A DNA stretch of 53,192 nucleotides from a virus: IMG/VR virus record IMGVR_UViG_3300045988_066337, one strand, 5' to 3'. Each line of letters starts with the position of its first letter. The first letter of the stretch is position 1. Under the pieces are notes generated by a model. The model was not told where the DNA came from. It saw nothing but the letters and a program-made list of their open reading frames with translations, and did not search any database. Shown piece by piece: positions 3,634 to 47,622 of the stretch. The translations under genes and the position numbers were made by a program.

Positions 3634-4084
3634 TATAATGCCTCCTTCCATATTCTGCTATCAATAATGCTTCTGCCATTCCGTCATGATCTTTCCTGCA
3701 CCTATCTGTTGCTTTTAGATTCACATTCGGAAATAATCTCTTGCATACTTCGATGGATGTATTTTTATCAGATGTGCAGGAAAATTCTTTCTTCCATTTC
3801 TGTGGTGTCACTAATTCGTAACGAATGCCGTATGCTTTTAAAACGCCTTGAATGAAACCAAAACTCATACCAAAGTTAAACGTACTTGATACTCCTTGCT
3901 TAGGCATTGCGTGAACGTGTTCAAGATAACATATTGCAGCATTCTGCCAACCTTGTACATATATTAATCTTAGATTATTTATTAAAACATCATCAGAGTA
4001 CGGATATGTTTCGCTGTTATTTTTACCATCACCCATGAAAGCTATTCCACCATTCTTACCCGGATCAATTCCTATATATATCAT
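3620..4084 (-). CDS. ruvC: RuvC-like Holliday junction resolvase
   Basis: N-terminal MIYIGIDPGKNGGIAF catalytic-Asp motif; typical phage RuvC size (154 aa). Confidence 0.7.
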   Translation of the reverse strand: MIYIGIDPGKNGGIAFMGDGKNNSETYPYSDDVLINNLRLIYVQGWQNAAICYLEHVHAMPKQGVSSTFNFGMSFGFIQGVLKAYGIRYELVTPQKWKKEFSCTSDKNTSIEVCKRLFPNVNLKATDRCRKDHDGMAEALLIAEYGRRHYNGKS

Positions 4085-4347
4085 TATTTCACCTTCACTT
4101 CCCCAAAAGGTATGCTTTTATCAATTGCGATTTGAAATTTATATGGTACCCAGCTCAAGTCCCCATAATATACCCATGAATTATCTTTATTATCATATCC
4201 GCTGGATAACATTTTAATGAGCTTAAACGTCATCTTTGACATTATTAAGTAGGGCTCATGAGAGTAGGAATTAGGTATTTCTACAAGATTATTTAATTCT
4301 GAATCTACATCCATATCTTGAACATCAAATAAAACATAATTACTCAT
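4084..4347 (-). CDS. Hypothetical protein
   Basis: ORF 4084-4365; AAAGGTAGG RBS favours the ATG at 4347 (MSNYVLF...). Confidence 0.55.
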   Translation of the reverse strand: MSNYVLFDVQDMDVDSELNNLVEIPNSYSHEPYLIMSKMTFKLIKMLSSGYDNKDNSWVYYGDLSWVPYKFQIAIDKSIPFGEVKVK

Positions 4348-4361
4348 TTTTAACCTACCTT

Positions 4362-4733
4362 TCAATAAAGCTTTAAATAACTTGTCTTTGTACCCAGCTC
4401 TCTTTTACTGCACCCTTGTCCTGCAGGACAACCTCTACGGTGACCTGTATTTAAGATATACCCACAAGCCAGCGTGCCTGATAATAAAGTGGAATATTTA
4501 CACCTTGCGCATGTTTTCTTGTCGCAAATCGACGATTTGACACCTTCTCGAGGCATGCTCGTATCTGATGTGCCTTTCAATTCCGCATACCTTTCTCGAC
4601 TGTACTCTCTTTCTCTTTTTAGTACATACTGTCTTCGACATTCCGGACACCTTATCGTTCTATGACTCTTCCTGGTAAAGATCGTCCCACAGTCCTTGCA
4701 AGCCACTTCCGGCTCTTTTAATGCATACGCCAT
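4362..4733 (-). CDS. Cys-rich zinc-ribbon protein, hypothetical
   Basis: CKDCG...CPECRR plus CARCKY...C..GC motifs; AGGTGG RBS favours the internal ATG at 4733; GC-rich island. Confidence 0.55.
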   Translation of the reverse strand: MAYALKEPEVACKDCGTIFTRKSHRTIRCPECRRQYVLKREREYSRERYAELKGTSDTSMPREGVKSSICDKKTCARCKYSTLLSGTLACGYILNTGHRRGCPAGQGCSKRELGTKTSYLKLY

Positions 4734-4746
4734 TACGACCACCTGC

Positions 4747-5364
4747 CTAGTCCTCACGGTAATTAAAGCACTCTTTGCCTGCCGTTCCATTCACTGCAAA
4801 TGTAGGCGGTGCTGTGCAGATGCAGTCGTTGTTATAATAGCAATCTGTTTCAACGCAGCGGATCGTCATATCCCGAAAAACACTGCGTTCTGGCATTTCT
4901 GGGTTCGTAGTGATATGCTCATGCGTCCAGATCAGACACATGATGTTCCACACAAATGCCCTGTCATGACGTTCGTCATCATCGCCCCGCAACCATTTGA
5001 GATAGTGTCTGACCGCACTGTCTATGTAACTTGATTCAGGGATCCCTTTCTGCCAGTTGTTTTCTCCGTACTTTTTGGCACCCTCTTCAAAGTGTTTTGA
5101 AACTTCCAGCAACGCCGTAAATAAGTCAGGGAACCCATCGCTTTTCATAAAATTTGTCACAACAGCTCGCAGATAGCCAGCATAATGTGTTGTTTGGTAT
5201 TTGTAAATCCCCTCTATAACTGTTGACGCTCCGCCACAGCCTCCTTCCAGGAGAAGCTCCGCTACTACACCCAGCGGCATCAGATCGCATCTGCCTTTGC
5301 CTTCCTGAATGTCTCTTACCGCACCCGTTTCGTATTCTCTTCTGTTTCCGCTATCTTGTATCAT
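4747..5364 (-). CDS. MazG-like all-alpha dNTP pyrophosphohydrolase of the dATP/dGTP diphosphohydrolase (MazZ / DUF5664) type, with a Cys-rich C-terminal tail
   Basis: DSGNRREYETGAVRD..GKGRCDLMP, GAKKYGENNWQKG and RHYLKWLRGDDDERHD match the motifs I recall for this family. Confidence 0.6.
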   Translation of the reverse strand: MIQDSGNRREYETGAVRDIQEGKGRCDLMPLGVVAELLLEGGCGGASTVIEGIYKYQTTHYAGYLRAVVTNFMKSDGFPDLFTALLEVSKHFEEGAKKYGENNWQKGIPESSYIDSAVRHYLKWLRGDDDERHDRAFVWNIMCLIWTHEHITTNPEMPERSVFRDMTIRCVETDCYYNNDCICTAPPTFAVNGTAGKECFNYRED

Positions 5365-5368
5365 TTTA

Positions 5369-5458
5369 TTATCTCCTCTTAATACCAGTAATTACAATTA
5401 CTGTAAAGCATATTATTGCAACACAATATAAAACACAATCTATTTCTGTAATATTCAT
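5369..5458 (-). CDS. Small hydrophobic peptide (29 aa), hypothetical
   Basis: ATGA overlap with the upstream stop; translates MNITEIDCVLYCVAIICFTVIVITGIKRR; fills the only gap here. Confidence 0.3.
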   Translation of the reverse strand: MNITEIDCVLYCVAIICFTVIVITGIKRR

Positions 5459-5631
5459 TCGATTTCCTCCCCAGCCGCCCATTCGTCGTATGCCTCATTC
5501 AGCACGTTATACGCTTCGTCAGTACATACGATGATGTGATATTCTCCACCGCTCGCACTGACCATTCCCGCATTGCACTCTTTTAGCGCCCTGAGCATTT
5601 CCGCTATTAAACCTACTGTTGCACTCATCAT
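5455..5631 (-). CDS. Hypothetical protein
   Basis: AGGAGGTGG RBS and ATGA overlap with the upstream stop favour a start at 5631 (MMSATVG...). Confidence 0.5.
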   Translation of the reverse strand: MMSATVGLIAEMLRALKECNAGMVSASGGEYHIIVCTDEAYNVLNEAYDEWAAGEEIE

Positions 5632-6107
5632 TCCACCTCCTGAGACCAGTAAGTTCTCCTGCAGTCTGAACAACATCCTACCGGATAATTTTTGCAGTCA
5701 TCAAAATCCTTATCAATATATCTAGGGCAAATATCTATAACGCCTTGATCCATCATGGCATTTGGGTTTGCCTTTAAAAATTCGCCTTGTCGTGTTTTAT
5801 TTGCAACCCTTATAAACCTATCTGGATAATTTCTACGACACCCTAAACATGTAGATGTACCGTAATCGTGTATACAATGTTCGCAACTGCCTAAACCAGT
5901 ATTTAATTCATTATCAGCACACTTCAATAGCTGCTCCACTAAATTTACAGTGCAGTCAACTCCCTTACTATTAAATTTACAATTCTTGCATGCGTTCTCT
6001 GTACTACAGCTAACAAATTTGTCATCTACCAGTGCAGGAAGTTGCCTGTCTTTTTGTATAAATTCCAAAATCTGATTTTTCCACGTCTCAAAATTCATCA
6101 ATATCAC
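5628..6107 (-). CDS. Cys-rich protein (about 18 Cys in 159 aa), hypothetical
   Basis: Several CxxC and CxxxC pairs (CKNCK, CEHC, CLGC, CCSDC). Confidence 0.6.
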   Translation of the reverse strand: MILMNFETWKNQILEFIQKDRQLPALVDDKFVSCSTENACKNCKFNSKGVDCTVNLVEQLLKCADNELNTGLGSCEHCIHDYGTSTCLGCRRNYPDRFIRVANKTRQGEFLKANPNAMMDQGVIDICPRYIDKDFDDCKNYPVGCCSDCRRTYWSQEVE

Positions 6108-20307: not shown

Positions 20308-20625
20308 TTATTCTCCTTTCTGAATAACTGCTTTATAAGCGCATCCAGTTAAATAACCATTTTCGTCATAGTCTTTTCTTTTTGTTATCAATTCTTTATT
20401 AACTAAATTATTTATTGTAGATATAACGCTCTGTCGGGAACACCCGCACCACTCAGAAAAATACTTATGTTGTGTGGTAAACCAACATTTTCCAGCGTTC
20501 GACCTATCAAATATCAAAGCATATATTAAAAGTTCATTCCCCTTTAAATCTAGTTCTTCACGCATCCACTTAGATATTATTATGAATGTCTCTTCTTTTT
20601 TAATATTAACATTTTCCATTTTCAT
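20308..20625 (-). CDS. Winged-helix protein of the replication module, hypothetical
   Basis: LLIYALIFDRS...CSRQSVISTINNLVNKELI HTH; GAAAGGAGAATGAAAATG start. Confidence 0.55.
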   Translation of the reverse strand: MKMENVNIKKEETFIIISKWMREELDLKGNELLIYALIFDRSNAGKCWFTTQHKYFSEWCGCSRQSVISTINNLVNKELITKRKDYDENGYLTGCAYKAVIQKGE

Positions 20626-20643
20626 TCTCCTTTCAATTAAAAA

Positions 20644-20789
20644 ATCCTTGTCATAAATAGATGTACCTTTCTTTTTTAATCAGTTGCGAGTTGAATAAAA
20701 AAGTTGGTTGTGTACAAAAAGGTACACCTATTTATAACAAGGATAATTGTTATACATTATTAAATTATACTATTATTCAACTCGCAACT
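20644..20789 (-). ncRNA. Structured 5' leader with two interleaved long stems (candidate attenuator or riboregulator)
   Basis: Perfect 17-bp pairing of 20682-20698 with 20773-20789. A 27-bp pairing of 20644-20670 with 20718-20744 has two mismatches, both G-U on the minus-strand RNA, and is followed by U5. Local hairpins at 20710-20727 and 20734-20753. Confidence 0.5.
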
Positions 20790-20791
20790 AT

Positions 20792-36325: not shown

Positions 36326-36952
36326 CTACCAGATAAGAGGCCGTTCTTTGGGCTCTTTTTTAACATCTGGATCATCAATTTTCTTATTCTTGTCAACAAA
36401 TTTAGGTTTTGGCTTATTAGGTTCAGGATCGTCTGGTTCCTCTTTTATAAAAGCACCTGCATCCTGTTCCTTGTACTTGTCCACGAAATCTTTAAATCCA
36501 AGTATCTCATTATCTTTCATGGACAATCTATTGTCCATAAGATCATTTATAAATGCTTTCTTAGCACTATTGGAGCTAAATTTAAGATCACTTGACAGTT
36601 CCTTGATAGCAAATTCATAACGCTGATCAGCTAATTGTTTGCTGTATTTTTTCTGCTGTTCATCATAGTCTGACTGAAGATTCTGTAACTTTGTAGTAAC
36701 TTCATCAATTTTAGCTTTATCATTCCCAACATCCTCTAGCTGTTTGTTTAAATCTGCTAAATCTTTGTCTCTCTGTTGTAAATCAGCTTCTAATTTCTTA
36801 TTGCCCGCCTCAGCATTTGTAACTTTGACCTGAATATTTTCGACTTCTTTGATAGTCTTATAGTTGGCGACCATTTCTTTTTCAAAAGATTCCTTTTTAT
36901 CTTCTGGAATCTCCAACCCAATAGATTTTAAAATTTCGTAGATATTTTTCAT
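36326..36952 (-). CDS. Scaffolding protein (Phage GP20-like)
   Basis: MKNIYEILKSIGLEIPEDKKESFEKE N-terminus; coiled coil; charged C-terminus. Confidence 0.7.
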   Translation of the reverse strand: MKNIYEILKSIGLEIPEDKKESFEKEMVANYKTIKEVENIQVKVTNAEAGNKKLEADLQQRDKDLADLNKQLEDVGNDKAKIDEVTTKLQNLQSDYDEQQKKYSKQLADQRYEFAIKELSSDLKFSSNSAKKAFINDLMDNRLSMKDNEILGFKDFVDKYKEQDAGAFIKEEPDDPEPNKPKPKFVDKNKKIDDPDVKKEPKERPLIW

Positions 36953-37025
36953 TAAAACCTCCTAAAATATCTTATATACCGTATTTTCTACGGTCTGGAA
37001 ATCTTCTTATATATTTATTATATAT

Positions 37026-37139
37026 AAGTTATCCACAGATTACAAGTATTTTTTTGTGGATAAGTCTGTGGATAACTTCGTAAAAATTTGTAAATATAAA
37101 AAGTTATCCACAACCTGTGGATAAGTCTGTGGATAACTT
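37026..37139. promoter_or_regulatory. Cluster of six perfect DnaA boxes (TTATCCACA) in two repeat units, flanked by pure-AT tracts
   Basis: TTATCCACA at 37029-37037 and 37104-37112. TGTGGATAA at 37055-37063, 37067-37075, 37116-37124 and 37128-37136. A 24-bp perfect direct repeat at 37055-37078 recurs at 37116-37139. Confidence 0.85.
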
Positions 37140-38274
37140 ATATTTTTACTTGTTTTGGTTTGATTTGTCGACCCTTATAATTAGGGACATATGCATTATC
37201 AAATCTAGGCTTAACCCCGGACTTATTTGCAATACGCCGGTAGGATGATTCTAAAATGTTCAATCGTTCTTTTTCCTTACCTATATCTTGATTTGCGGAT
37301 TTTAACCCAATTATTTTTTCTTTTTCATACCTCATTCGAGTTTCTAGTCTTCTCATTACTTGGGTGCATTCGTATCTTGTATATTTTTTACCATTCACCT
37401 CAATCATTTCCCGAGAATAATCTTTCATTTCCTGTAATTCTTGTGCAGAATATGGATTAGGAGATACGCCTAGAACAATGTATGAAATATTATGTTGGCA
37501 ATTCATTGTACCTATCGGTCTTTTTAATTCGGATTGGATTTTGTTGAATTTTTTCAATGAATATTGTCTGCCTTGATAAGGTAGATGATCTTCTGCACAT
37601 AATCCATGTGCATCAATTTGTACACCGTCTGCTCCGAATTGTTTACCTGCTTCTTCTCTAATACCGGAATTCAGTCTTCTAATCCCTTCTATTAAATTTA
37701 ATTTCAAAGCACTGTCTAATCTTCTGGTTAATCCGCTGGCATACACAACACGCAAACCGTTTGAAACCGTTTTATTTATTATACGACGTGTGGCAGATTC
37801 ATAATCGGTCATCCCCATTGTAACCTCTTGAATCATACTGTCAACTGCATTTCTATAATCTTGGGAAATAGCTGTTGTGTGAGAAATATTTCTAAATGTG
37901 TTACCTGTAGCTATAGCCATTGATTTCATATAGTTGTTTATAATGGTATTTTCAACAAAAGTGGGTTGAATTATATTTTTAGCTAAATAGTATTTAGCCA
38001 TGTCTGAATACTCCATCATACCACTTTTTTTAAATATCATTTGAATTTCTAACACAGATTTATCTGTGGCTCGTGCAAGCATACTGTTTATCTCATCAAT
38101 GTTAGCCTGCATCTTAGCCATCTCGTCTAATCTATGTAGATCTGTAGAAGTCAATGCCCCTATATCTGAAATATGTTTCGCCATCAATTCAATATAACGA
38201 ACATTGACCTCTTCAAATCTATTAGCAACTATAGTAGAAATCTGTTCTATCTGCTTAGCAACTGTATTAGACAT
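37138..38274 (-). CDS. Minor head protein (MuF / SPP1 gp7 family), no C-terminal toxin domain
   Basis: 378 aa directly after the portal gene (ATGA coupling); gp7-like core. Confidence 0.7.
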   Translation of the reverse strand: MSNTVAKQIEQISTIVANRFEEVNVRYIELMAKHISDIGALTSTDLHRLDEMAKMQANIDEINSMLARATDKSVLEIQMIFKKSGMMEYSDMAKYYLAKNIIQPTFVENTIINNYMKSMAIATGNTFRNISHTTAISQDYRNAVDSMIQEVTMGMTDYESATRRIINKTVSNGLRVVYASGLTRRLDSALKLNLIEGIRRLNSGIREEAGKQFGADGVQIDAHGLCAEDHLPYQGRQYSLKKFNKIQSELKRPIGTMNCQHNISYIVLGVSPNPYSAQELQEMKDYSREMIEVNGKKYTRYECTQVMRRLETRMRYEKEKIIGLKSANQDIGKEKERLNILESSYRRIANKSGVKPRFDNAYVPNYKGRQIKPKQVKI

Positions 38275-39815: not shown

Positions 39816-40586
39816 CTAAATTCTTTTAGTATAAGGAAGATATATCCACCCAGCACCACTTTTTAATTTACCCCACTTGCCTATTGTTTCCACTATAGTG
39901 TACACTCCGGGCTTGATGAAGCCTTTTTTTCCGTATCCTGTACCAGGACCTTTTCTAATATACAAGTCTTCTATAGATACTTTTACTTTGAATCCTCCTG
40001 TAGTTGCTGCAGATCCAGACGCACCTGTTTCATAGCCTTTATCTGCAATTCCAAGCGTTTTCAAAATACCTTTGGCATATGCGTATCCGAACGCTCGTTG
40101 CTCACTGGTAGTATCTGCGATCTGAACGTCTGTTGCATTATCAACGAAGACACCTTCGCAGATAACCGCTGGCGCATTTGTTAATCTAATCATACCATAA
40201 TAGTCTGTGCCATCTGTATCTCTGCGCGTTTTCAGCCCACGTGAGTTCTGACCTATTTTCTTAACTTCTGCTTCGATATTCTGTGCCAGAGTTTTTCCTC
40301 TGCCCCCACCGACGGTGTGATAGACTTCAAATCCATCGCCGCCTCCGGCATTGTTGTGTATCGAAATAACCAGATCGGCACCCCAGCTATTCGCTTCGCG
40401 CGCCATGCTGTTGATACCTGTGTCTGTACTGTTTGATGTTCGTGACATCTTTGTGATTACACCATTTGCATTCAGATAGTCCCTGCAGGCTAATGCCATG
40501 ACCAGATTCACGTCACGCTCAACGATGTATTTGACTGCGCCCGGATCGCTTCCGCCGTGACCAGGGTCTATATATACTTTTGCCAT
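39816..40586 (-). CDS. Endolysin: N-acetylmuramoyl-L-alanine amidase (Amidase_3) plus a C-terminal SH3-like domain
   Basis: MAKVYIDPGHGGSDPGAV; ISIHNNAGGG; C-terminal GYGKKGFIKPGVYTIVE...WGKLKSGAGWI. Confidence 0.85.
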   Translation of the reverse strand: MAKVYIDPGHGGSDPGAVKYIVERDVNLVMALACRDYLNANGVITKMSRTSNSTDTGINSMAREANSWGADLVISIHNNAGGGDGFEVYHTVGGGRGKTLAQNIEAEVKKIGQNSRGLKTRRDTDGTDYYGMIRLTNAPAVICEGVFVDNATDVQIADTTSEQRAFGYAYAKGILKTLGIADKGYETGASGSAATTGGFKVKVSIEDLYIRKGPGTGYGKKGFIKPGVYTIVETIGKWGKLKSGAGWIYLPYTKRI

Positions 40587-40587
40587 G

Positions 40588-40896
40588 TTACGCCTCCTCT
40601 ACGCAGATCGCCGTAATGCCATATGCCTTTGCTGCATCGTGTTCAAGCTTACATCCTCTTGCATCACGCCAACCTTTAGCAAAGTATGCGATGTCAGCAT
40701 CCGAAAGCAGCTCAAGTGACTTCCCTAAAAACCACAGAGGTTTTGCGTCCGCCGGTGCACCTTGAAAAAATGAATCAATTACCTCCACAGGCTCCCCAAG
40801 ACACCTTTGCGCACTATCAATCGCCTGTTCTCTTTCACGAAGTATTTCCTCATCGCTTTTGCCCTTCATGGGCTGTGATATAAAAAGTTTCTTCAT
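40588..40896 (-). CDS. Nucleoside 2-deoxyribosyltransferase-fold (DUF4406-like) protein
   Basis: Real start is the internal ATG at 40896 (GGAGGAAAAATAATG, TAATG overlap with the holin stop). MKKLFISQPMKGKSDEEI...AKGWRDARGCKLEHDAAKAYG fits the pattern I recall for DUF4406. Confidence 0.45.
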   Translation of the reverse strand: MKKLFISQPMKGKSDEEILREREQAIDSAQRCLGEPVEVIDSFFQGAPADAKPLWFLGKSLELLSDADIAYFAKGWRDARGCKLEHDAAKAYGITAICVEEA

Positions 40897-41102
40897 TATT
40901 TTTCCTCCACTTCCGGCAGCCCTGCCACCGATGTTAAAATAGACAGCAACCCTGCCATCACCGTCGCGGATCCCACCATAACCCAATTTGTTTCTGTAAT
41001 CATTGTGGATGCTCCAATCGTAGCGATGGCTGCCTGCGCCATTGTCTTTACAGCTCTTATACCTGCTGCTTTCCACCATTCTTTACTCTTAAGTGTTTTC
41101 AT
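40896..41102 (-). CDS. Holin (phiLC3 / LL-H-like)
   Basis: 68 aa; WWKAAGIRAVKTMAQAAIATIG and a second TM SATVMAGLLSILTSVAGLPE; charged C-terminus. Confidence 0.7.
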   Translation of the reverse strand: MKTLKSKEWWKAAGIRAVKTMAQAAIATIGASTMITETNWVMVGSATVMAGLLSILTSVAGLPEVEEK

Positions 41103-41395
41103 TTAATCACCGTATCCTTTCGTGTATACTCATAATAAATCTCGTCACCATTTCCTGGTAATATTACCGTCCCGGCTTTGAATATCTTTCCTGCGACTTC
41201 GACATCTTTGTGCAGCTGTACTACATTATTTATACTGTTAATGCTGATAGTCGCGCTGCCATCGTCATTTACGTATATCGTATACCCTACAGCAACGGCA
41301 GGTTTCGGCGTAGTCATAAACAGAAACGCCGCTGCAGCTATGACTAGCATTGCAACAACACATATCGCAATCACTAGCCTTTTATGCTTTGACAT
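41099..41395 (-). CDS. Membrane-anchored protein, hypothetical
   Basis: N-terminal TM LVIAICVVAMLVIAAAAFLF. Confidence 0.55.
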   Translation of the reverse strand: MSKHKRLVIAICVVAMLVIAAAAFLFMTTPKPAVAVGYTIYVNDDGSATISINSINNVVQLHKDVEVAGKIFKAGTVILPGNGDEIYYEYTRKDTVIK

Positions 41396-41446
41396 GATAA
41401 CCCTCCTTTTTTAAATAAAAAGTCAGCCTGTAATGGATGCCTAAAA

Positions 41447-41875
41447 TTATTCAGTGTATAATTCCCAGCCGGCAGGATATTCTTCAGGTGACCATGTGTT
41501 GCCATCAATCAGCGATTTATACAGCTTTTCATTGTAGCTGACAATATCACCTTTGCTGTAGGCATCATGTGCTCCTGTCGGCTTGCTCCATATCGGATAC
41601 CCCGCAGGATTCAATCCAATGGCAGTATACAATGCTGGTGTGGCATCTGGCTTCCAGTCTTCCTGTGAAGTGTGTGCCTGCACCACCTTATACAACTGTG
41701 GATCGCCTGTGCTGTTTTCGCCATATGAAAACATGTCCCCCACGGCATATGCCCTGCCGACTGCGTATGCTGGAAATACTGTTGCAACTTCCAGTGCTGC
41801 ATCATCATCCAACGTCTGAACAAACAATTGCAATGCCCTTCGCAGCTGCTCTGCTGCCAATGCTTTATTGCTCAT
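41447..41875 (-). CDS. Carbohydrate-binding (CBM5/12-like repeats) protein
   Basis: Two repeats: AYAVGDMFSY...YKVVQAHTSQEDWKPDATPALYTAI and AYSKGDIVSYNEKLYKSLIDGNTWSPEEYPAGWELY. GGGGGTGA RBS favours the ATG at 41875. Confidence 0.55.
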   Translation of the reverse strand: MSNKALAAEQLRRALQLFVQTLDDDAALEVATVFPAYAVGRAYAVGDMFSYGENSTGDPQLYKVVQAHTSQEDWKPDATPALYTAIGLNPAGYPIWSKPTGAHDAYSKGDIVSYNEKLYKSLIDGNTWSPEEYPAGWELYTE

Positions 41876-42107
41876 TGGTTTCACCCCCTGTACCAAGTAT
41901 GATATTTAACAATTCTTCCGCCGTTGGTTCTGTCGGCTGCGGATCGGGCTTTGGCAGCGGATCGTGGATATATTCACCATCTACATATCGGTATTCTGTT
42001 ACATCCCCGTCTGGGAATGAATCGACTACATTTTCATATGTTTGCCCTTCAAGGCAGTTACAAACTGACAATATTCGTCCGTTTTCTTCTAAATTTAAAG
42101 CGTACAT
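41865..42107 (-). CDS. Small tail-fibre-associated protein (XkdW-like position)
   Basis: 80 aa directly after the tail fibre gene. Confidence 0.45.
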   Translation of the reverse strand: MYALNLEENGRILSVCNCLEGQTYENVVDSFPDGDVTEYRYVDGEYIHDPLPKPDPQPTEPTAEELLNIILGTGGETNEQ

Positions 42108-47430: not shown

Positions 47431-47477
47431 CTTATTTCCTCCTTTATGTGTTTTGTTTTTCCTTAACTTATGTATAT

Positions 47478-47506
47478 ATTGTAACACATAAAGAATGAAA
47501 TGTCAA
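47478..47506 (-). promoter_or_regulatory. SigA-type promoter, TTGACA-17-TACAAT with TGT extended -10; heads the packaging/structural transcription unit
   Basis: Reverse complement reads TTGACA TTTCATTCTTTATGTGT TACAAT. Confidence 0.6.
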
Positions 47507-47518
47507 GAGCTTTGCAAT

Positions 47519-47551
47519 AAAAAAAAGACAGCCGCGAATCAAAGCTGTCTT
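47519..47551 (-). terminator. Rho-independent terminator after the clamp-loader operon (bidirectional shape)
   Basis: AAGACAGC...GCTGTCTT hairpin with a T8 run on the minus strand and a T5 run on the plus strand. Confidence 0.7.
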
Positions 47552-47622
47552 TTTCAAAGGAGCAAACAAAACAAAATATAGAGGTAATTGAACTTTGCAA
47601 AATTTAACGATTCGCTACTATA

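Follow-up and report, generated by a model that had tools for sequence, protein, structure and literature searches.

The 53,192-nucleotide (nt) stretch of viral DNA analyzed here (IMG/VR record IMGVR_UViG_3300045988_066337; hereafter the window) contains, directly before its replication genes, a leader (20626-20791) that is most likely a built-in on/off switch for the transcription of these genes, of a form not yet catalogued. Our preferred reading, to which we assign a probability of roughly 0.55, is that the leader, placed before the phage replication module, is a self-contained bistable attenuator of transcription of the terminator/antiterminator kind. It is promoter-proximal and upstream of open reading frames, carries a long hairpin followed by a U-run, and has a conserved alternative fold incompatible with that hairpin. 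A model-generated reading of the letters alone (the first-pass annotation) had proposed the logic of an attenuator or riboswitch; these features agree with attenuator-type logic but not with a ligand riboswitch, as leaders of unrelated sequence have the same topology.

All genes of the window lie on the minus strand, which is the sense strand for every leader feature described here, and along it the order is promoter, arm 1, arm 2, arm 3, arm 4, UUUUU, ribosome-binding site (RBS; GAAAGGAG) and start codon. A consensus scan places a sigma-A-type promoter, TTGATT-17-TACAAT, at 20820-20792 (-35 box TTGATT at 20820-20815, -10 box TACAAT at 20797-20792), with an extended -10 TG upstream of the -10 box at 20800-20799; the RBS that serves the first replication gene follows ~165 nt farther downstream, and from this promoter the transcription start site (TSS) is predicted near 20785. 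Arm 1 (AGUUGCGAGUUGAAUAA, 20773-20789) begins 2 nt past the -10 box, at or slightly upstream of the predicted RNA 5′ end, and pairs with arm 3 (UUAUUCAACUCGCAACU, 20682-20698) to give stem B, in which 17 of 17 positions are complementary and 74 nt separate the arms. Arm 2 (20718-20744) pairs with arm 4 (AAAGGUACAUCUAUUUAUGACAAGGAU, 20644-20670) to give stem A, 27 nt long and 93% complementary with 47 nt between the arms; its two non-complementary positions read U-G and G-U on the minus strand. Directly 3′ of stem A stand UUUUU (20643-20639), together a putative intrinsic terminator, and then the RBS (20634-20627). The inverted-repeat search thus recovered both stems, their interleaved order and the wobble positions as the first-pass annotation had described them, and the promoter and the succession of U-run and RBS were found where it had placed them. 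The annotated ATG at 20625 is probably not the true start codon, because the Shine-Dalgarno (SD) sequence GGAG (20630-20627) lies merely 1 nt from it; the start of this first replication-module gene, encoding a HTH_36 / DnaD_N-like protein, is probably the ATG at 20619-20617, at an SD spacing of 7 nt, the only spacing at which the relative L008 has an ATG.

In the mechanism that we propose, transcription would begin at the conserved promoter, and arm 1, at the 5′ end of the transcript, would capture arm 3 on its emergence to form stem B, with arm 2 meanwhile kept in two local hairpins, Pa and Pb (together with stem B, state I). Stem A would then still be unzipped when the polymerase stands at the U-run, allowing read-through into the replication genes. 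Were stem B absent or blocked, arm 3 would pair locally with a linker, L3, as an apical helix, and arm 4 would oust Pa and Pb, so completing the 27-base-pair (bp) stem A just before the U-run (state II) and leading to termination. That stem A and the U-run terminate transcription, and that state I forms first, we infer.

Both stems are maintained by compensatory changes

Relatives of the leader were gathered through the initiator protein, through a DNA pattern of arm 2, and through a protein of 183 amino acids (aa) encoded upstream, the last being chosen to avoid ascertainment bias on the leader itself. These searches yielded ~30 distinct homologous leaders from uncultivated Clostridia-type siphoviruses, in which both stems are kept via many compensatory changes. 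In an alignment (A4) of 19 leaders of the window's own family, here called type 1, 96.4% of the stem cells hold standard pairs, against 39-48% when the partners are slid by 1-3 columns, and 13 pairs show changes on both sides. In the unbiased, protein-anchored set of 21 distinct leaders, covariation was found at 13 of the 17 pairs of stem B and 10 of the 27 pairs of stem A. As MAFFT misaligns the indel-rich distal part of stem B, we relied there on duplex folds of each sequence rather than on column counts, and these gave, for every homologue, 13-19 bp in stem B and 24-27 bp in stem A. The extreme cases are L121 and L125, in which the sequence of arm 1 is wholly replaced and its pairing with arm 3 is retained: stem B of L121 is formed by GUGGUAUAGACAGGUAA and UUACCUGUCUAUACUAC, and that of L125 is likewise different throughout. 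A motif in the linker between arms 1 and 2 (L1, 20745-20772), AAUUUAAUA at 20766-20758, is invariant in A4, with AAUUAAAUA in its place in these two leaders.

Other parts of the leader hardly change. The base of stem A (AUCCUUG/CAAGGAU) and the U-run behind it are invariant in type 1; the run comprises 5-7 U in all type-1 leaders, and the subsequent bases are variable. The -35 and extended -10 boxes are positionally kept in type-1 leaders with a 17-nt spacer free to vary, except in the L003 lineage. The type-1 leader is also more conserved than the proteins flanking it: between L003 and the window, the leader is 92% identical in nucleotides, against 37% in amino acids for the upstream protein.

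The sense RNA folds with a minimum free energy (MFE) of -47.2 kcal/mol, compared with -27.2 ± 3.7 kcal/mol for 200 shuffled sequences, none of which was as stable (z = -5.4), a statistic that overstates independence given the kinship that the leader sequences share. The strongest evidence for a selected structure is the number of distinct compensatory events, together with the recurrence of the architecture in unrelated leader families (see below).

The wobble pairs point to the strand on which selection acts. Read on the sense strand, A4 contains 28 G-U cells and no A-C cell for stem A, and across both stems G-U occurs at 11 or more pair positions against a single A-C mismatch, so that selection acts on the folded sense strand. 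Because the promoter is conserved upstream, and the U-run and RBS downstream, RNA rather than DNA is the parsimonious level of action, and selection at the RNA level, first proposed from the two wobble positions of a single sequence, is thereby borne out across the family.

An Rfam scan of the window leader returned only sub-threshold matches to generic miRNA hairpins (24-31 bits, against gathering thresholds of 54-150), and five related loci gave no match at all, with phage C4, IsrK and the known ribozymes and riboswitches included in the scan. The first-pass annotation, too, had not recognised the element as a known riboswitch class. A search for extra copies of the motif with nhmmer gave a single copy in each genome, and loci L010-L038 had none.

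Two alternative folds share the same nucleotides

The comparisons indicate two states, state I consisting of stem B, Pa and Pb, and state II of stem A with the apical helix, followed by U-run and RBS. In state I, arm 2 is divided between the 3′ strand of Pa and the 5′ strand of Pb. Hairpin Pa (20754-20733) pairs UAUAACAA at 20754-20747, within L1, with 20740-20733, and Pb (20727-20710; GUGUAC-CUUUUU-GUACAC) covers the distal part of arm 2, its 5′ strand being 20727-20722; both agree with local hairpins already noticed on first inspection. In state II, the apical helix (20703-20671) is formed by CUUUUUUAUUC (20703-20693) and the linker L3, GAUUAAAAAAG (20681-20671), an inverted repeat enclosing an 11-nt loop, so that the 5′ half of arm 3 lies within the helix and the core of arm 3, CUCGCAACU, becomes the apical loop.

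Pa, Pb and the apical helix were found in every homologue. Pa has 5-8 bp in all sequences, with one-sided changes toward G-U, and Pb has 6 bp in all sequences, two of its pairs having changed in both strands in the L008 type. Covariation links the distal part of arm 2 to both of its partners, the 3′ strand of Pb and arm 4: in the L008 type, GUGUAC of arm 2 has become GUGUGU, GUACAC of Pb has become ACACAC, and GUAC of arm 4 has become GCAC. Arm 3 likewise covaries with both arm 1 and L3, and the distal part of arm 1, the 5′ half of arm 3 and L3 have changed together in three subtypes (GAAUAA / UUAUUC / GAUUAA; UGAAAUA / UAUUUCA / UGAAAU; and AGAAUAAAA / UUUUAAUUUCU / AAAUUAAAA). The sequence of the apical helix differs accordingly by type: the L009 type has AUUUCA/UGAAAU, the L041 type UUAUUUUAAUUU/AAAUUAAAAUAA. 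Nucleotides that retain two mutually exclusive partners are the signature of a switch, and it is because of this dual-partner covariation, not because of geometry, that we favor two states over a static fold.

When the entire leader is considered, state II has a lower energy than state I in 18 of 19 sequences, with a median difference of ~7.6 kcal/mol. As the chain grows, the order of stabilities is predicted to change: MFE calculations on successively longer transcripts, a thermodynamic proxy rather than a kinetic simulation, favor stem B as soon as arm 3 is out and continue to do so until ~22 nt of arm 4 have emerged, and flip to stem A when the exposed 3′ end is near 20648, with the polymerase roughly on the U-run. 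The calculation suggests that read-through would be the default and that termination would require stem B to be blocked. The first-pass annotation had offered two roles for stem A, as a terminator or as a means of sequestering the RBS; the terminator-like character is supported by its invariant base and by the U-run, which recurs at the end of all four leader types described below, but sequestration is not, the SD being unpaired in both constrained folds.

Unrelated leaders occupy the same slot

Sampling through the upstream 183-aa protein covered 51 loci, of which 22 carry type 1, 20 type 2, six type 3 and two type 4, the remaining contig ending inside the leader. Type 2 (L004/L007 and L111-L146), type 3 (L151-L157, L165, L168) and type 4 (L148/L149) are all found in one slot, with the 183-aa gene on one side and the replication genes on the other. 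No sequence is common to type 1 and either type 3 or type 4, but the interleaved topology of arms 2, 3 and 4 is the same. In types 3 and 4 the promoter has an extended -10 box, and arm 1 starts 2-7 nt past this box; stem B measures 12-16 bp and stem A 21-27 bp, the base of stem A is GC-rich, and the U-run and RBS come next. In type 3 the two folds are isoenergetic (-59.9 vs -59.5 kcal/mol), and state II is the lower in type 4 (-71.7 vs -56.3 kcal/mol). Type 3 displays dual-partner covariation of its own, independent of type 1. Type 2 is built differently, with three hairpins, the last one long and followed by a U-run; the apical loop of this last hairpin, CCGCCA, is complementary to UGGCGG of the preceding hairpin (6 bp). 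A long hairpin with a U-run is thus common to all four leader types at the locus. In type 2, the 3′ arm is duplicated (CUUAAUAUCUG / CUUAAUAUCAG).

Loci of distant initiator homologues showed no interleaved architecture above the shuffle background. A ligand-binding riboswitch is not supported, as types 1, 3 and 4 have neither a common sequence nor a common unpaired motif and no Rfam match was found; a conserved aptamer was likewise set aside, with stem B and the L1 motif varying even within type 1.

The same comparisons bear on a static fold, in which stems A and B would exist together as a large pseudoknot of 5′ tail and loop, serving constitutively as an exonuclease block or protein scaffold. 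In favor of it, the corresponding contact in type 2, a 6-bp loop-loop kiss, is compatible with its hairpin. Because the free 5′ end is where arm 1 lies, and the loop of stem A (47 nt) and L1 (28 nt) are long enough for a 17-bp helix, the first-pass annotation went too far in calling such a pseudoknot implausibly long; mutual exclusion of the stems is supported by covariation. We nevertheless consider it very improbable that this is the whole function, since Pa, Pb and the apical helix reuse nucleotides of stems A and B, with compensatory changes in two unrelated families, and their conservation would be unexpected if the pseudoknot alone mattered.

The length of the helices also raises the question of RNA processing. 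In all homologues the 24-27 bp of stem A make up a near-perfect duplex, longer than termination requires and above the helix length of ~20 bp or more expected of a putative RNase III cleavage site; duplexes of 24-27 bp fall in the known size range of RNase III substrates. RNase III could therefore cut stem A, and possibly stem B, detaching the replication mRNA from upstream RNA, and a 5′-terminal stem B could shield the transcript from RNase J1 or RppH, the folds then setting mRNA half-life. In types 1, 3 and 4, only 2-7 nt separate the -10 box from the start of stem B, which would put this stem at the RNA 5′ end, and with all genes co-oriented a polycistronic read-through RNA is to be expected. 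Processing would leave unexplained, however, both the second partners of arms 2 and 3 and the U-runs, that of type 1 invariant behind stem A and those of types 2-4, and the length of stem A already follows from having to displace Pa and Pb. As the sole function we judge processing unlikely; it is compatible with an attenuator as a second layer and so is not a true alternative to it.

We regard as quite unlikely that the locus is a phage small-RNA gene, in which the ~145-150-nt unit from promoter to U-run would make a regulatory, decoy or priming RNA and read-through would be incidental or secondary. Consistent with such a gene, in all four types a conserved promoter is followed by a structured RNA of 145-190 nt whose end resembles a terminator, which makes the transcription unit complete, the type-1 sequence outlasts its flanking proteins (92% nt vs 37% aa for L003), and trans-acting terminated leaders have precedents in Gifsy-1 IsrK and P4 CI RNA (PMC4825925). 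In every case, though, the RBS and start of the replication genes lie ~10-20 nt past the U-run with no intervening promoter, so that these genes need read-through unless upstream transcripts supply them; in addition, no small-RNA target is known and no Rfam family matched.

The leader behaves as an exchangeable cassette

From 1-2 nt beyond the -10 box onward, the leaders of L115 (type 1) and L113 (type 2) are unrelated, although the 1803 nt before that point are 99.4% identical between the two loci. This comparison indicates that the cassette is swapped exactly, from the -10 box to the RBS, with the RBS as its 3′ boundary. More generally, one leader type stands before different first genes and one initiator stands behind different leader types, and the leader type is independent of both the flanking proteins and the initiator type. 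In the close relatives L001 and L002, the gene for the 105-aa protein is absent and the leader abuts the 298-aa gene; relative to them, the 105-aa HTH_36 / DnaD_N-like gene of the window (20308-20625) is an insertion, and the RBS context GAAAGGAGAAUAAUAUG is duplicated at 20320-20304. Regulator specificity must then lie in the cassette itself or be independent of sequence, and the independence of the cassette argues against an adjacent protein regulator, initiator autoregulation, an initiator-specific origin and a metabolite aptamer alike.

It likewise tells against a function at the level of DNA, whether an origin, a single-stranded DNA initiation or primosome hairpin site on the sense strand, or paired operators overlapping the promoter. 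The position directly upstream of initiator genes, the AT-rich sequence and the long inverted repeats would suit such an element; single-stranded DNA hairpins also tolerate G-T pairs, arm 1 overlaps the start region of the promoter, and one compensatory change lies upstream of the predicted +1. Yet no direct repeats or iterons were found, and one leader occurs with non-orthologous initiators and one initiator with unrelated leaders, so the leader is not an initiator-specific binding site. The sequence of stem B can be replaced provided that pairing is kept, which speaks against protein operators, and the strand asymmetry of the wobble pairs, the conserved promoter, the U-run and the RBS fit RNA; the window moreover holds a separate origin-like candidate. 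We therefore find a DNA-level element highly improbable, the least probable of the explanations considered. A replication origin in particular was rejected, in view of the lack of direct repeats and the independence of leader type from initiator type.

The separate candidate lies at 37029-37136, between the genes for a minor head protein (37138-38274) and a scaffold protein (36326-36952), where six perfect DnaA boxes (TTATCCACA) fall within 108 bp of intergenic sequence; four boxes, arranged as two copies of AAGUUAUCCACAGACUUAUCCACA, are sense-oriented, and the other two are inverted. The arms of an inverted repeat, complementary at 18/18 positions, stand at 37022-37039 / 37126-37143, and the whole window contains eight perfect DnaA boxes against 0.9 expected. 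Within the head-gene module, the cluster could serve as an origin dependent on DnaA, or as a site that titrates DnaA or has a regulatory role.

Candidates for the trigger

Returning to the attenuator, the signal that would set it is most likely independent of sequence or carried by the RNA itself, because unrelated leaders are interchangeable and the leader type does not track the neighboring proteins. Candidates are transcription speed or nucleoside triphosphate supply, which would pit the long-range stem B against the local apical helix, the condition of the RNA 5′ end, a host RNase or helicase that works on this end, and a trans effect of the leader RNA. The last of these would make the leader an RNA-only dosage sensor, an extension of the attenuator that we think improbable as a specific claim. 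Leader RNAs in state II, whether terminated or refolded, would present the core of arm 3 in their apical loop and leave arm 1 free as a 5′ tail, and these exposed arms would bind the complementary arm of nascent leaders in trans, precluding intramolecular stem B and causing termination, so that growing numbers of genome copies and leader RNAs would self-limit transcription of the replication genes. If this were true, the diverging yet complementary stem B sequences would mark specificity groups (cross-talk or incompatibility groups) among co-infecting relatives, and the interchangeable leader types would be alternative "alleles" of one device.

Several other regulators were considered and dismissed. 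The neighboring small proteins were rejected as RNA binders, as the leader type is independent of them and their profile matches are uninformative, the 183-, 140- and 111-aa proteins having no informative match in Pfam or PHROG. A leader peptide was rejected because the only ATG in the leader (20756) is not preceded by an SD and is missing in L001, L003 and other relatives. For a countertranscript, a plus-strand promoter (TTGTTA-18-TATTAT, 20747-20776) is confined to window-type sequences, no antisense promoter is positionally conserved across the type-1 subtypes, and a plus-strand hairpin with U-run was represented only by a weak 6-bp candidate. A second promoter within the leader, TTGCGA-N17-TTTAAT, was rejected on its spacing, which ranges over 15-18 among subtypes.

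A number of observations weigh against the attenuator. The 47-nt interior of stem A is atypical of intrinsic terminators, a simple terminator scan leaves stem A and its U-run uncalled, and U-rich stretches are common in a genome of ~33% GC. The predicted TSS would cut the first 4 bp of stem B, leaving 13 of 17, and one of the pairs so lost shows a compensatory change. With arm 1 5′-terminal, a pseudoknot holding both stems at once is sterically possible, and the upstream element of type 2 is a 6-bp kiss with the terminator loop, insufficient alone to stop termination. Finally, one lineage (L003/L006) has lost its -10 box, and transcripts reading through from upstream may therefore matter there and may carry the element. 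The loss is a 15-bp deletion that leaves both stems intact, seen at L003:2803-2850 (on a contig shared with L047 and L145) and in the independent assembly L006, and the leader of this lineage would be transcribed only via read-through from upstream.

Genome context

The window represents a siphovirus-like genome, with genes for a portal, a terminase, a tape-measure protein, a PolA-type polymerase and a clamp loader. Downstream of the leader follow, in order, the HTH_36 / DnaD_N-like protein (105 aa), an O-like initiator (298 aa), a small uncharacterised protein, a DnaC-like loader, the DnaB helicase and the DnaG primase; upstream lie a SNF2 helicase, a small helix-turn-helix protein and two proteins without assigned function (140 and 183 aa). 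Near and distant nucleotide searches of GenBank phages gave no match at the DNA level; the nearest isolates, Clostridium phage phiCTP1 and Streptococcus phage Dp-1, are ~37% identical in DnaB, and one relative is located in a Clostridia metagenome-assembled genome. No tRNA genes were found across the window. Two 2-kb bins (4001-6000 and 40001-42000) have a G+C content of 0.41 and 0.46, compared with ~0.32-0.38 elsewhere. An intergenic region at 47434-47588 contains overlapping imperfect inverted repeats (25 nt, 76% complementary, and 19 nt, 89% complementary) that include an RBS-like AGGAGGAAAU on the minus strand.

Should the switch work as we propose, a whole clade of uncultivated gut or digester siphoviruses would gate its replication module by a compact RNA, with no need for a dedicated protein or antisense gene. 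Its logic of two interleaved helices, one of them anchored at the 5′ end, would survive complete sequence turnover and would represent a new architecture among bacterial and phage attenuators. It would also be a tractable case of co-transcriptional kinetic control and a regulatory part portable between promoter and RBS. The comparative data provide a ready seed alignment for a new RNA family.

Comparison with known systems

Mutually exclusive antiterminator and terminator folds in a leader of ~150-200 nt, decided between during transcription, are a trait that the phage leader would share with riboswitch platforms, with the Bacillus subtilis infC leader and with pyrG. In pyrG, the 5′ end of the transcript pairs with the terminator region. 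The infC leader is a protein-dependent attenuator responding to L20 (PMC1865079). The phage leader differs from all of these in having no conserved aptamer or protein-binding domain and in being interchangeable with unrelated leaders, and its antiterminator helix, at 13-19 bp, far exceeds the P1 helix of riboswitches.

Among same-strand RNA immunity systems of phages, the P4 CI RNA (with seqA/seqC) causes premature termination before replication genes through RNA-RNA pairing, and the terminated short isoform of Gifsy-1 IsrK acts in trans on the read-through isoform (PMC4825925). As in the present leader, these lie upstream of replication or regulatory genes and have one segment complementary to two others, the counterpart here being arm 3 with arm 1 and L3. 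They differ in host group (Clostridia-type for the phage leader) and topology, and no relationship in sequence or through Rfam was found to the leader.

The closest mechanistic analogues are the rep-leader attenuators of pT181 and pIP501. Novick and colleagues are said to have described, in 1989, the scheme of the pT181 type, in which pairing I:III competes with III:IV. The rep leaders of pT181 and of pIP501/pAMbeta1 are countertranscript-driven attenuators of Gram-positive plasmids (PMC5703833). They are plasmid elements, whereas the element described here belongs to a phage, and the phage leader has no conserved antisense promoter or terminator; in addition, its arm 3 lies inside the terminator hairpin instead of forming one of its arms, so that the helices are interleaved rather than overlapping. 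The likeness lies in the plan: in both, a long untranslated leader precedes a replication-initiator gene, a 5′-proximal segment pairs downstream and would thereby pre-empt a terminator just before the start codon, and blocking of this 5′ segment would let the terminator form.

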